From assembly GCA_965195285.1 (NCBI GenBank), contig CBDAFS010000016.1:1-14132 (forward strand): a DNA stretch of 14,132 nucleotides, read 5' to 3'. Made by a program: the position numbers and the translations under genes. Shown in pieces: positions 4,651-14,132 of the stretch. Below the pieces are notes generated by a model. That model saw only the letters and a list, made by a program, of their open reading frames with translations, searched no databases and was not told the origin of the DNA. The stretch's first letter is position 1, and every line of letters begins with the position of its first letter. Origin of the DNA: an uncultured Aminicenantes bacterium (lineage in GTDB: Bacteria; Acidobacteriota; Aminicenantia; UBA2199).

Positions 4651-4677
4651 GAGGTTGAGGTTAAGGCTGAGGTTAAG
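4651..4677. repeat. Degenerate hexamer tandem patch (GAGGTT/AAGGCT)
   Basis: gaggttgaggttaaggctgaggttaag. The same family occurs inverted at 5120-5145 and direct at 8352-8377. Confidence 0.8.
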
Positions 4678-5081: not shown

Positions 5082-5145
5082 CACTTTACGCCTTCACGCC
5101 TTACGTCTAACGTCTTTATCTTAACCTTAGCCTCAACCTTAACCT
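5082..5145 (-). repeat. Composite intergenic repeat, inverted copy of 8352-8407
   Basis: The reverse complement matches 8352-8407 with 2 substitutions and one extra 8-bp unit (GAAGGCGT). Confidence 0.9.
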
Positions 5146-7228: not shown

Positions 7229-7327
7229 GGTTCCGGGGGTCGGAGATCGGAGATTCTAACCCTCTCACTCTTTCACCTCAATCTTAATCTGAGATAAAGG
7301 TAGAGGTAAAGGTAAAGTCAAAAAATG

Positions 7328-7544: not shown

Positions 7545-7650
7545 AGTTTACCAATTACTATTCAATAATTACGACGTACGCCTTACGTCTTTATCTCCAG
7601 CTAAACCTCTACTATCGGTTTATAGATGACTGATTTAAATTATTGGCGGC

Positions 7651-7851
7651 TTACAACTTGGTGACGTTGGCTGCCTGGTCGCCTTTGGGGCCGCTTTTGA
7701 CCTCAAATTCAACCTCATCACCTTCATCCAGGGCTTTGTATCCCTCGCCCTTAATTTCAGAATAGTGAACAAACAAGTCGTTCCCTTCATCTGTCTCAAT
7801 AAAACCAAAACCTTTTCGGCGGTCAAACCATTTTACTTTCCCTTTGGGCAT
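7651..7851 (-). CDS. csp: Cold-shock domain protein (CspA family)
   Basis: GKVKWF, RNP1 KGFGFI, RNP2 LFVHYS and KGDQAANV motifs. AAGGAGG ribosome-binding site. Confidence 0.97.
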
Positions 7852-7933
7852 AATCTACTGCCTCCTTGTTAAAAATAACTAGGAAATAAAAGAAGAATGG
7901 AAAACAATTTCTACCCTTATTTACTAAAAACAA

Positions 7934-7962
7934 CCTATAGCATACTTATTTTTCGAAGTCAA
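7934..7962 (-). promoter_or_regulatory. Putative sigma70 promoter for csp at 7851
   Basis: TTGACT-17 bp-TATAGG with an extended -10 TG. The -10 is imperfect. Confidence 0.45.
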
Positions 7963-7981
7963 GAAATATAAAAAACGGGGG

Positions 7982-8182
7982 TTAGGTCTTTACGACGTTG
8001 GTGGCCTGGTCGCCCTTGGGGCCTTTCTTGATCTGAAATTCGACTTCCTGATCTTCATCCAGCGAGCGGTATTCATCGCCCTGAATCTCGGAATAATGAA
8101 CAAAAACATCATTTCCGTCTTCATCCTGGATGAAACCAAAACCCTTGCGGTTGTCAAACCATTTAACTTTTCCTTTTGGCAT
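7982..8182 (-). CDS. csp: Cold-shock domain protein (CspA family)
   Basis: Same RNP1/RNP2 motifs. ATG at 8182 is preferred over TTG at 8188 from AAGGAGG spacing and the MPKGKV start shared with the paralogues. Confidence 0.97.
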
Positions 8183-8291
8183 AATCAAGTTCCTCCTTGT
8201 AAAAATTGATCATTAATTCGGGTGAATCGATTATACCGGGGGTAATAGATTACCAAAGGATAACAAATTCTCTCCCAATTGATGAATAAAA

Positions 8292-8320
8292 ATCATAGCA
8301 TGTTTCAGCAATGCTGTCAA
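8292..8320 (-). promoter_or_regulatory. Sigma70 promoter for csp at 8182
   Basis: TTGACA-17 bp-TATGAT with an extended TG. Implies a 5' UTR of about 100 nt, as is usual for csp mRNAs. Confidence 0.75.
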
Positions 8321-8351: not shown

Positions 8352-8407
8352 AGGTTGAGGTTGAGGCTAAGGTTAAGATAAAGACGTGAGACGTAAGGCG
8401 TAAAGTG
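8352..8407 (+). repeat. Composite intergenic repeat, inverted copy of 5082-5145
   Basis: aggttgaggttgaggctaaggttaagataaagacgtgagacgtaaggcgtaaagtg. Confidence 0.9.
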
Positions 8408-9147: not shown

Positions 9148-9176
9148 ATTATAACATAGAGATTCTCTGAGGTAAA
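9148..9176 (-). promoter_or_regulatory. Extended -10 promoter for the RRM gene
   Basis: TGtTATAAT, with the hexamer at 9153-9148. A weak -35 TTTACC lies 17 bp upstream. Confidence 0.65.
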
Positions 9177-9268
9177 GAGTTAGGTAAAGGTAAAGTCAAA
9201 GGTAAATGAAAGACGTAATTGGTAATTCGTGAATAGTAATTGGTAATTAGTGATTGGTAATTCGGTTG

Positions 9269-9346
9269 TTACTTTCTCACTGTCTCACCTTTTCACTTTC
9301 TCACCTAAATCTGAGGTAAAGAAAAGACGAAAGTCGTAATTGGTGA
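9269..9346 (+). repeat. 78-bp direct repeat, copy 1
   Basis: Matches 10674-10751 at 75 of 78 positions. Confidence 0.92.
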
Positions 9347-10539: not shown

Positions 10540-10673
10540 TTCGACTCCTGTTAATACCTACGTTCTCTGAAGTAATAAAGTTGATGAATTATCCAATTTG
10601 AGGTAAAGATAAAGGTAAAGAAAAAGTTGAATTTAGGGTCTAGTGGCTTGTGAATGGTGACTCTCTCACCGTC

Positions 10674-10751
10674 TTACTTTATCACTGTCTCACCTTTTCA
10701 CTTTCTCACCTAAATCTGAGGTAAAGGAAAGACGAAAATCGTAATTGGTGA
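10674..10751 (+). repeat. 78-bp direct repeat, copy 2
   Basis: Matches 9269-9346 at 75 of 78 positions. Confidence 0.92.
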
Positions 10752-10829: not shown

Positions 10830-10858
10830 TTGAAATCCAATAAAAAATATGATATACT
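10830..10858 (+). promoter_or_regulatory. Sigma70 promoter for csp at 10969
   Basis: TTGAAA-17 bp-TATACT with an extended TG. AT-rich 5' UTR of about 105 nt. Confidence 0.7.
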
Positions 10859-10968
10859 TATTTTTAAGAAAATAAGGGAGAGAATTTTTTATTCACAGTA
10901 ACTCAGTTTACCTTGCTTAATCAATTCATCCATTATTTATTTGAAATCTAAAAAGGAGGAACTTGATT

Positions 10969-11172
10969 ATGCCAAAAGGTAAAGTTAAATGGTTTGACAA
11001 CAGCAAAGGCTACGGCTTTATCCAGAGTGAAGACGGTAATGATGTGTTTGTTCATTATTCTGAAGTTCAGGGCGATGATTATCGCAAATCTTTGGATGAA
11101 GATCAAGAAGTTGGATTCTCGATCAAGCAGGGTCCCAAGGGCGACCAGGCTGCCAACGTCGTTAAATTGTAA
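10969..11172 (+). CDS. csp: Cold-shock domain protein (CspA family)
   Basis: GKVKWF, KGYGFI and VFVHYS motifs. The leader AAGGAGGAACTTGATT-ATG is identical to that of the csp at 8182. Confidence 0.96.
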
Positions 11173-11195
11173 AATCTAACCGACAACAATAAAGG

Positions 11196-11240
11196 GGCCC
11201 GGGAATATCCGTCAAACGATATCCCGGGCCTTTTTTTTTT
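11196..11240 (+). terminator. Rho-independent terminator
   Basis: GGCCCGGGA...TCCCGGGCC stem followed by ten T, directly downstream of the csp gene. Confidence 0.9.
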
Positions 11241-11889: not shown

Positions 11890-12068
11890 GCGTTCCTCCT
11901 CCAAGTATTTTACTGTTTCGTATACGAAATGGGAAGGGGCAGAGTTCAAAACGCTTAAATATATGGCACCCAACCATAGTTCAAAGCTCAGTTTCCGGAG
12001 GTCGGGGATCGGAGGTCGGAGATAGATATTAATGCCGGGAGATGCTGTTCATTCAGCATTTAATAATG

Positions 12069-12261
12069 ATACCAGCCGTTCATGATACGCTCGCCCGTCC
12101 GGTAATTGACCGGAATACGAACTCGTCTCACTCAAAATGTCCAACTCGGCCTTCGGCCTCAGACAGAGACATTTTGCCCCCTGAAGACGGGAAGGTTCGA
12201 CTCGTTCTCGCCGGCACCCAATTCCCTCCCTGAGGCTCGCGTTACCATGAACGGCTGCTAT
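12069..12261. repeat. Long nested-palindrome element (MITE/REPIN-like or structured RNA)
   Basis: Perfect 12-bp inverted repeat CAGCCGTTCATG 12073-84 with 12246-57. Inner stems TCCGGT/ACCGGA, CAAAATGTC/GACATTTTG and GGCC-TTC-GGCC. Confidence 0.6.
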
Positions 12262-12375
12262 TTTATCTAATTGAATGCCGGGTGACTGGGTGAGGGAACG
12301 TAAACGGAGGGGATGGGCACCATCGCATATGGGGCTGCGTCAAAACCTCCGATCCCCGAACTCCGACCTCCGAAA

Positions 12376-13644
12376 CTATTGTATGGTCAACACATGGGGG
12401 ACTTCCCAGTTCTCGGAGTGGAAGCGAGTGTCGTACTCCAGCTTTTTCAGATCGGCCCGGGAGGTCCAGATGGAGAGGGTGGTTCCGAATCTCGCCTGGA
12501 TCGAGCAGACTACCTCCCAGAATTCCTCCATGTTGGTTACTCCCAGGGCGCACAGATCCGTGGCCCGGCGGAAGCGGGTGCAATTTTGATACAGGTAGTC
12601 CGGCCCCTCCAGAAAGGCGGTGTTGGTCATCACCTGGTAGCATTCCGTGGTAGGAAACACGTGGAGTTTCTTATCCCGGTCAAACTCGATCACCACCGAT
12701 CGCCCGGAAGCATCGGCGATGAGGAAGTGCTGCAGCTCGTCCGGAAACCAGATCCTGACCTTCCGGATCAGGGCCAGGGCCTCTTCCACGGTAGCGCAGC
12801 AGTCCAGGATCACCCGGATCAGGCGGGGCGAGCAGATGGCCGCCACCTGGGGATAGGGCTCCTCGTCGTAACTGGTGTACTCCGGGGGTAAAATATTGCT
12901 GGCAATGGCCATGAACAGGCCCCTCTCGTTGATGCCGTCCATGATCTTGTTCTGCAGCTGGTAGCAGGTCATGCCCACCGAGCGGTAAACCCCGCTCAGG
13001 TTGGAGACCACCTGGAAGTGGGGCCGGTCGTCGTAGATGTCGAAGTTTCTTCCCGTCAGCATGCGCTGCTCTTCTTCTATATAATAGGAGATCACGCTGC
13101 AATTTTCCGTTGAGGTCGAGGAGGTGAAGCGGGTCAGTCTCAGGAAGTCGTCGTAGCGGAAAAGCTCCCACCAGAGCCGGCCGGCGAACCAGTCCTCGAT
13201 GTTGCGCAGGTCCAGATTCTCCAGATTCTGGGAATAAGCCCAGGCAATGCCCCGGGCCCGTTCCAGGAAGGGGGGAAAGAATTTCCCATACATCGCCTCA
13301 ATTTTTTCGTTGATCTCCCGGCTTTCCTCGGTGCGCAGGGTGGGATAAATGCCCTGCTTACGGGCCATCAGCCCCAGCCACTTGCCCACATCCCGGTAAC
13401 TGCCCTGAAAAGTGATCTTCTTGGGAAAAAGCCCCGGCGAGATCTCCTCGTAAATAGCCACGTTTTTCCCCAGCTCGGCATTGGTATTGGCCAGAAATAC
13501 TTTAAACAGGTCATCATAGGTTTCATACAGTTCCCGGATTTCCTGCTCCCGGGCCTCCCTCTCATCCTGATTCCGGCTCCAGGAGGTTTCGCAAAAGCAC
13601 AGGGTTAGGGTCAGTAAAATAATTAATATATATTTTTTTGTCAT
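12376..13644 (-). CDS. Secreted Ntn-fold cysteine hydrolase (C45 acyltransferase / linear amide C-N hydrolase-like)
   Basis: Signal peptide. Internal nucleophile-type ENCSVI followed by LTGRNFD, DGINERGL, HFLIADASG and MTN. Confidence 0.85.
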   Translation of the reverse strand: MTKKYILIILLTLTLCFCETSWSRNQDEREAREQEIRELYETYDDLFKVFLANTNAELGKNVAIYEEISPGLFPKKITFQGSYRDVGKWLGLMARKQGIYPTLRTEESREINEKIEAMYGKFFPPFLERARGIAWAYSQNLENLDLRNIEDWFAGRLWWELFRYDDFLRLTRFTSSTSTENCSVISYYIEEEQRMLTGRNFDIYDDRPHFQVVSNLSGVYRSVGMTCYQLQNKIMDGINERGLFMAIASNILPPEYTSYDEEPYPQVAAICSPRLIRVILDCCATVEEALALIRKVRIWFPDELQHFLIADASGRSVVIEFDRDKKLHVFPTTECYQVMTNTAFLEGPDYLYQNCTRFRRATDLCALGVTNMEEFWEVVCSIQARFGTTLSIWTSRADLKKLEYDTRFHSENWEVPHVLTIQ

Positions 13645-13682
13645 TTTATATATAATACGGATTTCAGAGCTTTAATTGGAGA

Positions 13683-13944
13683 TTGTCAGGGAGAGCTCTC
13701 TTTAGTTTGTCATTAAGAACTATCAGAGCTTGTCATTAAGAACTTTACTGAGTTGGTCATTACATCTCTCTGAAACTTGTCAGGAAGGGATGAATTGAGC
13801 TTGTCATAATAGATCTTTTTGTCTTGTCATTACGACTCTTATGAATTTGTCATTGAAGCTCTATGTAAATTGTCATTGAAATTCAAAAAAGCTTGTCATT
13901 ACAGATCAAAAAAATTTGTCATAACAACTCTCTTTATATTGTCA
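13683..13944. repeat. Phased array of 12 TTGTCA(T/G) boxes with 23-24 bp period and variable spacers
   Basis: Boxes start at 13683, 13707, 13730, 13754 (TGGTCA), 13777, 13801, 13824, 13847, 13870, 13893, 13916 and 13939. Confidence 0.92.
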
Positions 13945-14004
13945 GAAAAAGAATTATTTACAAGCTCGGTTAGCTCTTTATGGCAATCTCCAGTAATCAC
14001 TTAA

Positions 14005-14100
14005 TGACAAGAACTGTTGAGCTCTTCCTGACGTTCACATAGTGAACTTATGACGCAACCTTCGGTTGCTAATGACGCTCACGAAGTGAGCAAATGACAA
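14005..14100. repeat. Inverted-orientation TGAC boxes separated by triloop hairpins
   Basis: TGAC at 14005, 14029, 14051, 14073 and 14095. The last three intervals each hold a perfect 6-bp stem with a 3-nt loop. Confidence 0.88.
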
Positions 14101-14132
14101 GTTCGATTAGATATTAAATAGGCTGGTCATTA

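Follow-up and report, generated by a model that had tools for sequence, protein, structure and literature searches.

A phased twelve-box array in an Aminicenantes genome and its probable place in a lineage-specific, REP/MITE-like intergenic repeat family

The window, which is the whole stretch of 14,132 nucleotides analysed here, is the entire contig C16 of an uncultured Aminicenantes genome (3.28 Mb, 62 contigs), and the end of this contig falls inside repeats. The array of twelve short boxes near that end is probably the L arm of a mosaic cluster that belongs to a lineage-specific, AT-rich, REP/MITE-like intergenic repeat family, most likely an orphan one. Such an array would be selfish or neutral DNA and no device of the genes that flank it. 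For this genome, the finding explains the contig break and removes the tempting iteron- or CRISPR-like reading of the array; for the Aminicenantes lineage, it points to a REP-like family that is probably its own.

The array, its inverted arm and the contig end

Twelve T[TG]GTCA boxes start at positions 13683, 13707, 13730, 13754, 13777, 13801, 13824, 13847, 13870, 13893, 13916, and 13939, which gives start-to-start distances of 24, 23, 24, 23, 24, 23, 23, 23, 23, 23, and 23. The box reads TTGTCA in 11 of the 12 cases and TGGTCA in one (13754). These positions and the 23/24-bp spacing are exactly those given by an earlier sequence-only reading of the same DNA, and the spacers that it quoted are present. 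Its description of a near-invariant core also holds: the short head and the period are conserved whereas the rest drifts, and the array is not a plain tandem duplication. TKGTCA, counted on both strands of the window, occurs 28 times against 13.47 ± 3.34 expected, a number reached in 0 of 200 dinucleotide-preserving shuffles, and 16 of the 28 occurrences lie within 13638–14129, approximately the final 500 bases. The AT-richness relative to the neighbouring gene is likewise confirmed (GC of 0.354 for 13501–14000 against 0.55–0.60). The consensus of the linear (L) units, derived from 69 members of the family, is TtGTCATTAaaactCTntg..cTT, and these units form no hairpin. The geometry is not that of a CRISPR, as had been noted before, because the constant part is 7–9 nt long and the supposed spacers share a consensus across loci. 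An isolated thirteenth box, TTGTCAT (13638–13644), stands 45 bp before the array. The Ntn-hydrolase gene has its start codon within this box, whose coding-strand sequence is ATGACAA; the overlap is probably a coincidence.

Beyond 13944 the motif changes strand, with inverted TGAC heads at 14005, 14029, 14051, 14073, and 14095 (Table 1). The units of the turn region are complementary to the first L units (inverted repeats I1, I3, I4, and I5), and the head at the first turn position, which is degenerate here, is intact in the paralogous copy on contig C31. The hairpin (H) units that follow form perfect mini-hairpins with a 6-bp stem and a 3-nt loop at 14033–14047, 14055–14069, and 14077–14091; two of the three bear a CGTC tag and one a TGTC tag.

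Table 1. Features of the array locus at the end of the window
Feature	Positions	Strand	Remarks
Flanking gene, choloylglycine-hydrolase/AAT (Ntn hydrolase) family, 422 aa	12376..13644	-	ORF list; Pfam CBAH 2.6e-15, AAT 5.8e-9
Twelve L (linear) units, head-to-tail	13683..13961	+	Head T[TG]GTCA(T)(TA) and a non-palindromic body of ~14-16 nt; period 23-24 bp
Turn region, two inverted L-type units	13962..14028	-	Degenerate head ATGGCAA 13980-13986; intact head TGACAA 14005-14010
Three 22-bp H (hairpin) units	14029..14094	-	Head-first on the minus strand: (C/T)GTCAT, 2 nt, 6-bp stem with 3-nt loop
Further inverted L-type unit	14095..14120	-	Head TGACAA 14095-14100; pairs with L-arm unit 2-3 (inverted repeats I2, I8)
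Start of the next block, terminal-type head CTGGTCATTA	14121..14132	+	At the contig end; a further head stands at 14124

The end of C16 (14072–14132) is identical over 61 bases, in opposite orientation, to the end of C31 (G000:C31:189201–189261). This overlap places the array between the hydrolase gene and the gene of a type I restriction R-subunit (HsdR, 917 aa), and past 14132 the repeats run for about 300 bases more, up to the HsdR gene. A Logan short-read contig passes from 14132 into a diverged copy of 13879–13942, that is, it goes back 254 bases. Taken together, the 61-base overlap and this jump show that the locus is a higher-order repeat whose block measures about 254 bp. At this locus, the cluster may have grown in place through duplication of single units and of the ~254-bp block, and such unit and block duplication would be the reason why the assembly breaks here; short-read unitigs also break up within the array. 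The sequence-only reading was right that the array is real and is not a CRISPR, and it missed the contig end inside repeats, the inverted continuation, the head at 14124, and the recurrence of the pattern in the genome.

A two-armed repeat family and its hairpins

The same L-then-H architecture was found in 13 stretches of the genome, which correspond to about 12 loci if C16 and C31 are joined. L units consist of T[TG]GTCATTA and approximately 14 nt, with a period of 23, whereas H units consist of (C/T)GTCAT, 2 nt, and a 15-nt hairpin, with a period of 22. The H units run opposite to the L units, which sets the two arms facing each other, heads outward. Facing arms of this kind occur in 9 of the 13 stretches, alongside one L-only stretch, two H-only stretches, and one mosaic (C31). 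Terminal heads read TGGTCAT and internal heads TTGTCAT, and compact copies are bounded by 12-bp inverted termini, ACTGGTCATTA ... TAAATGACCAGT. Different loci repeat distinct L-unit types in one order; this shared order, together with the inverted termini of the compact copies, indicates that the composite was copied as one piece, of which the window holds an expanded and more diverged version. The composite may have spread in the past to about a dozen intergenic sites. The architecture is also present inside the long contigs C15, C30, C42, C45, and C62.

All loci are intergenic, five of them between divergent, three between convergent, and four between tandem genes. The genes beside the 12 loci are unrelated and include HsdR, ParB, PFOR, SpoIIE, peptidases, and others; the sequence-only reading had itself named the lack of a consistent associated gene as an argument against its own proposal. 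The element has no coding capacity, and there is no cargo between its arms. Of the features of a MITE, inverted termini and about 12 short non-coding copies are seen, while no target-site duplication is seen at the copies, and a search for an autonomous copy between matching termini returned chance pairs only.

The family is patchy among relatives. The strict three-box pattern has 22 matches in this genome and 7 in G024 and is present in 2 of the 41 related genomes searched, whereas the reversed pattern, used as a control, has 0 matches in every one of the 41. When one 251-nt copy was used as a BLAST query, the family was detected in 11 of 72 genomes of the order and in 5 of 18 genera. The copies are merely 72–81% alike, which suggests that they are old. 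A compact copy with inverted termini is found in the same-genus genome G002, and it has no counterpart beside the orthologous genes of the present genome (G000). The nearest orthologue of the flanking gene, in G002 (43% identity), has no array upstream, and both comparisons point to turnover of the element. A 31-nt string spanning flank and array had 0 matches in metagenome scans, a 20-nt terminal-unit pattern had five matches in these scans, each without an array on inspection, and a literature search by sequence words of the array returned primer matches only.

The hairpins of the H units appear to be maintained. For 38 units picked solely by their 22-bp period, the 6-bp helix is paired in 82.5% of cells against 57.0 ± 1.9% after shuffling (0 of 500 shuffles reach the observed value), figures that relatedness among the units can inflate; slid-partner controls, which retain this relatedness, give 16.7–43.7% pairing. 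Changes on both sides are found at all six helix pairs (59 cells), and 17 of the 38 units form perfect hairpins. GTCA is invariant in all 38, and the H units carry the full CGTCAT. The helix mismatches comprise five G-T, eight A-C, and 32 others and are mostly pyrimidine-pyrimidine; since G-T and A-C mismatches are rare, there is no RNA-type wobble signature on either strand. Compensatory change without an excess of G-T wobble on either strand suggests that the element, should it act at all, most likely does so in single-stranded DNA form. Heads and hairpins exposed as single strands during replication or repair could then meet a strand-specific nuclease.

Another class of repeats surrounds the family. 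Intergenic tandem repeats of purine-rich hexamers to octamers (AGGTAA, GTAATTG, and the like) are followed by pyrimidine-rich inverted counterparts (TCTCACCT, CTTAAC) and form long imperfect palindromes. In the window they lie at 9170–9310, 10601–10711, 4651–4677, 5120–5145, 7291–7317, and 8352–8403, and they also flank the arrays in C15, C30, and C42. The GTCAT elements stand midway in such pairs of purine-rich and pyrimidine-rich repeats.

Likeness to tagged REPs, partner enzymes and half-unit arrays

The sequence-only reading did not recognise the array as a described one, but its head and overall design match those of the CGTC-tagged REPs and the NTS/SRM motifs as far as these are set out in the sections of the two papers covered here. 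Its proposal that the head is a recognition motif of a mobile-DNA-type system remains the best reading of the head. According to the covered sections of Di Nocera, De Gregorio and Rocco (2013, BMC Genomics 14:522, PMC3733652), REPs of the CGTC super-family have a CGTC tag (variants TGTC and CCTC), a stem of 8–9 bp starting with A,T, a loop of 4–5 nt, and a 3-nt tail near CCA; they occur predominantly as HH dimers with the tags outward and have no transposase attached. Members include dRS3 of Neisseria, which forms mosaic intergenic clusters, RPE-4/6 of Rickettsia, and the CGTC-4 clusters of Wolbachia, and these sections also propose an action at the RNA level. They hold no mention of Aminicenantes.

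The window units share with these REPs the unpaired CGTC or TGTC tag followed by A,T (TGTC in 11 of the 12 L boxes), the short hairpins, the intergenic and multi-copy location, the facing of units with tags outside, the lack of an adjacent transposase gene, the interleaving of clusters with other repeats, and the patchy occurrence among relatives. They differ from the published description in that the H stems have 6 bp instead of 8–9 and the loops 3 nt instead of 4–5, the A,T that follows the tag stays outside the stem, which begins 2 nt later, and there is no C-initial tail, as the H hairpin abuts the next head. Furthermore, the element is AT-rich, one of its two unit types (L) is free of hairpins, and it contains long head-to-tail arrays, which are called negligible for CGTC repeats in the covered part of PMC3733652.

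NTS/SRM motifs are bound as single-stranded DNA by the small GIY-YIG nuclease SsnA, which cuts a few bases upstream and does not touch RNA (Chenal et al. 2025, Nat Commun 16:2388, PMC11893778, main text). In this account, the three bases before the palindrome, equivalent to GTC of the head, matter most for Ssn cutting, and the C after the palindrome matters for binding. In vitro, a concatemer of "first halves" was cut by SsnA once paired with the second half. Resemblance to the part of this work covered here lies in the oriented head upstream of a hairpin, in the agreement of the window head with HGTCWY, the opening of the SRM search sequence, in the motif-gene-motif design that was likewise found in other phyla in this analysis, and in the concatemer of first halves, which mirrors the natural half-unit arrays of those phyla. 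Neither the window nor any of the 13 array stretches contains a match to the complete published search sequence, and the 13 matches genome-wide, compared with 3, 12, 5, 12, and 13 in five shuffles, show no enrichment.

Two other types of repeat are similar in part. GTAG REPs, BIMEs, and REPINs with RAYT, as well as TIRYT/TIRtrons, are also clustered hairpin repeats of alternating orientation, and GTAG REP/RAYT and TIRYT-type repeats are thought to be moved as single-stranded DNA by an HUH enzyme (PMC3733652; Quentin et al. 2018, PMC6006769; sections covered). The tag of the present element, however, is not GTAG, and the Y1 genes of this genome have their own GGGG-type inverted repeats and not GTCAT units. 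Pneumococcal BOX elements, which are modular and MITE-like, vary in how many internal modules they contain. The present family shares with such MITEs short inverted termini, variable module number, strong folding, and the absence of coding capacity; it differs in that its 22–23 bp modules all repeat the terminal head and that its two module types stand on opposite arms. The element may therefore be a variant that acts like, and is perhaps descended from, the tagged REPs, and it is not filed as a member of the SRM family. The shared head is just 6–7 nt long and was imposed by the cross-phylum search, so that the likeness may reflect convergence instead of descent from the tagged REPs.

For a long time the CGTC-tagged REPs had no partner enzyme, and the link to Ssn nucleases dates only from 2025. 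A search of this genome (94.9% complete) with one Ssn-like query protein found no Ssn homologue. Pfam GIY-YIG has two matches in the genome, a frame of UvrC size and an 84-aa ORF. The latter is the only small GIY-YIG ORF of the genome (G000:C15:102029–102283, minus strand). BLASTP gave no alignment between it and an Ssn-like protein that is flanked by REPs, and no arrays adjoin it; none of seven small GIY-YIG genes in related array-bearing genomes is flanked by arrays. As neither an Ssn homologue nor a canonical SRM was found, the array is most likely an orphan or relic, or else it is served by another single-strand enzyme.

Y1 transposases were considered as the partner and rejected. The genome has 17 Y1_Tnp matches, one of which adjoins an array at 137 bp; however, Y1 transposases are found in 68 of 72 genomes, their gene counts do not follow the element, and they have their own inverted repeats. 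These genes lie on contigs C8, C14, C61, C47, C31, C46, C50, C15, C30, C26, C9, C27, C49, C12, and others (e.g., L165:2108–3076(-)). Most of the ORFs encode about 300 aa, and the single one scanned also has a DnaA-C-type HTH. They are flanked by GGGG(A/T)(C/G)A(C/G)-type inverted repeats, sometimes reiterated every ~20–23 nt, and fit the described TIRYT/TIRtron class, subclass 2.1.

The interest of the finding lies mostly in half-unit arrays of other phyla. When named genomes were scanned for trios of TTGTCAT-type boxes at 22–24 bp, at least 120 stretches from many phyla were returned, some of them plain tandem or coding repeats, and 115 loci were usable. Among the matches listed, the last array unit is a complete hairpin, with a stem starting at the A,T right after GTC, in 63 of the 115 loci (62 of 114 without locus L131, which comes from an unpublished genome), and 7 of 328 internal units contain such a hairpin. 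In the same listed matches, the internal units share on average their first 13 nt with the complete unit, followed by 64% pyrimidine filler, and a C stands directly after the complete hairpin in 59 of 63 cases.

These loci have the form of 22–25 bp phased arrays of TGTC tag, 5' stem arm, and pyrimidine filler before one complete tagged REP (loci L021–L140, e.g., L042, L094, L120, L122, L029, and L073). Where no gene is enclosed, the locus forms a long palindrome flanked by arrays on either side. The ends often bracket a small Ssn-like GIY-YIG gene (GIY-YIG loci L198, L199, L204, L215, and L220). Among 101 ORFs adjoining the 63 listed loci, small GIY-YIG was the sole family found three times. 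In 30 array-bearing genomes, tagged hairpins bracket 23 of 40 small GIY-YIG genes, three of the 40 being the cases that prompted the test, against 1 of 7 UvrC-type controls; in one genome, five of nine REPs lie at a small GIY-YIG gene. This association agrees with the 71% given in the main text of PMC11893778 and is already known. What the two main texts do not describe is the phased array of half motifs before a complete motif, often around Ssn-like genes. Such arrays are absent from the main text of PMC3733652, where "half" and "truncated" occur 0 times, and from that of PMC11893778, supplements aside, where "tandem" occurs 0 times and "half" refers to in-vitro split substrates.

A tentative extension of these data is that the phased 22–25-bp arrays are natural concatemers of Ssn-type first halves, comprising head, cut site, 5' stem arm, and pyrimidine-rich filler. 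On this view, the Aminicenantes-type element would represent an AT-rich offshoot in which head, period, and facing arms persisted although the canonical motif and, as it seems, the nuclease were lost, or one that uses an unrecognised nuclease. Each half could pair with the single 3' arm in alternative registers or with the inverted units of the opposite arm, and the result might be a graded or multi-site platform for cleavage or binding of single-stranded DNA, or the footprint of element growth. If natural arrays work like the first-half concatemers in vitro, they would bear on repeat multiplication and on the targeting of single-stranded DNA nucleases.

Competing explanations and neighbouring features

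The strongest rival to an orphan REP-like family is a lineage-specific minisatellite or MITE family that has no tie of descent to CGTC REPs or SRMs. Its GTCAT head would be convergent or accidental, and the arrays would be products of repeat-rich intergenic regions. The failed stem, loop, tail, and SRM tests favour it, as do the negative Ssn search in this genome with one query and the position of the arrays between purine-rich and pyrimidine-rich hexamer repeats, which are common in the genome. Nevertheless, it is an unlikely explanation. The H units carry the full CGTCAT and not GTCA alone, covarying hairpins follow directly after the H head, and the heads-outward arms match the HH arrangement that predominates among CGTC REPs in the covered part of PMC3733652. 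In addition, the type-c hairpin core GAGCGAAGCGAG is also found in the REPs of other phyla, with an ambiguous orientation to the head.

The sequence-only reading had favoured a cooperative protein-loading platform on double-stranded DNA, in the form of iterons, a centromere-like site, or end sites of the Tn7/Mu type, to which an array of a global regulator can be added. The short invariant head, the fixed 23-bp period, and the drifting body are in line with this, and, as is frequent at transposon ends, the outermost heads (TGGTCAT) are not the same as the internal ones (TTGTCAT). The geometry may also resemble that of arrays of 22-bp end-binding sites, and the array might bear a likeness to a PhoB box or to Tn7 end sites. 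A platform of this kind is nonetheless improbable, as duplex binding sites are not expected to show covariation of hairpins. An iteron or centromere of an integrated element agrees poorly with 12 dispersed loci, at which no Rep, Par, integrase, or TnsB-like gene was found except for a single ParB neighbour. The cognate gene that had been predicted beyond 14132 did not appear there: the next gene after the C31 overlap is HsdR, and the neighbours at this locus are therefore an Ntn hydrolase and HsdR. A link to rve or Tn7-like systems was rejected because the one rve ORF of the genome has no boxes beside it, genome G021 has six element matches and no rve ORF, and the elements carry no cargo. BLAST against phage and plasmid records, a kind of search that the sequence-only reading had proposed for the spacers, returned no match. 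A link to the replication origin was also discarded, with dnaA located on another contig (C7) and a local GC-skew change that is uninterpretable; the orientation of the arrays relative to GC skew, concordant in 9 of 13, is uninformative.

A transcribed structured RNA could either act as a sponge that binds protein at many UAAUGAC/UUGUCAU sites or be processed from the array into RNAs of ~23 nt. Both strands of 13670–14132 fold strongly compared with shuffles (z = -5.8 and -7.6), and the short hairpins are regular, with a constant 7-nt linker. The RNA-level action proposed for CGTC REPs in the covered sections of PMC3733652 also speaks for it. This explanation is very improbable for several reasons. 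Rfam contains no family matching the array in the window at E<=1, and 10 related loci gave only a tRNA at gathering score. Promoter-like sites are not in excess (1 against 2.3 ± 1.5 expected), and terminator-like sites number 0. G-U wobble is not in excess on either strand, and 3-nt loops are poor RNA loops. Since the copies are found between divergent, convergent, or tandem genes, they share no transcript orientation. A resemblance to box C/D motifs had been suggested for the minus strand, but the genome gave no match to Fibrillarin or Nop, whereas archaeal controls matched. Finally, the nuclease of the studied relative leaves RNA alone (PMC11893778, main text).

An assembly artefact of the metagenome bin, suggested by the position of the array at a contig end and by short-read unitigs that fragment inside it, can be dismissed, because 13727–13889 has 0 differences in contigs from a second study (runs X3 and X5), which establishes the array as real DNA, and the same architecture occurs within long contigs and in other genomes. 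The orphan REP/MITE-like family remains the preferred explanation.

Two further features of the window lie outside the array. A GC-rich segment of about 320 bp between two genes (11990–12380) has heptamer arrays in inverted orientation at its two ends, (CGGAGGT)n at 11996–12023 and its complement at 12347–12374; its minus strand folds with z = -4.8, and it has no Rfam match. The cspA thermoregulator model has three full-length matches below its gathering score of 78, at 10843–11236 (+, 59.6 bits), 7598–7918 (-, 41.7 bits), and 7962–8318 (-, 33.4 bits), which suggests three cold-shock-type genes with long structured leaders.
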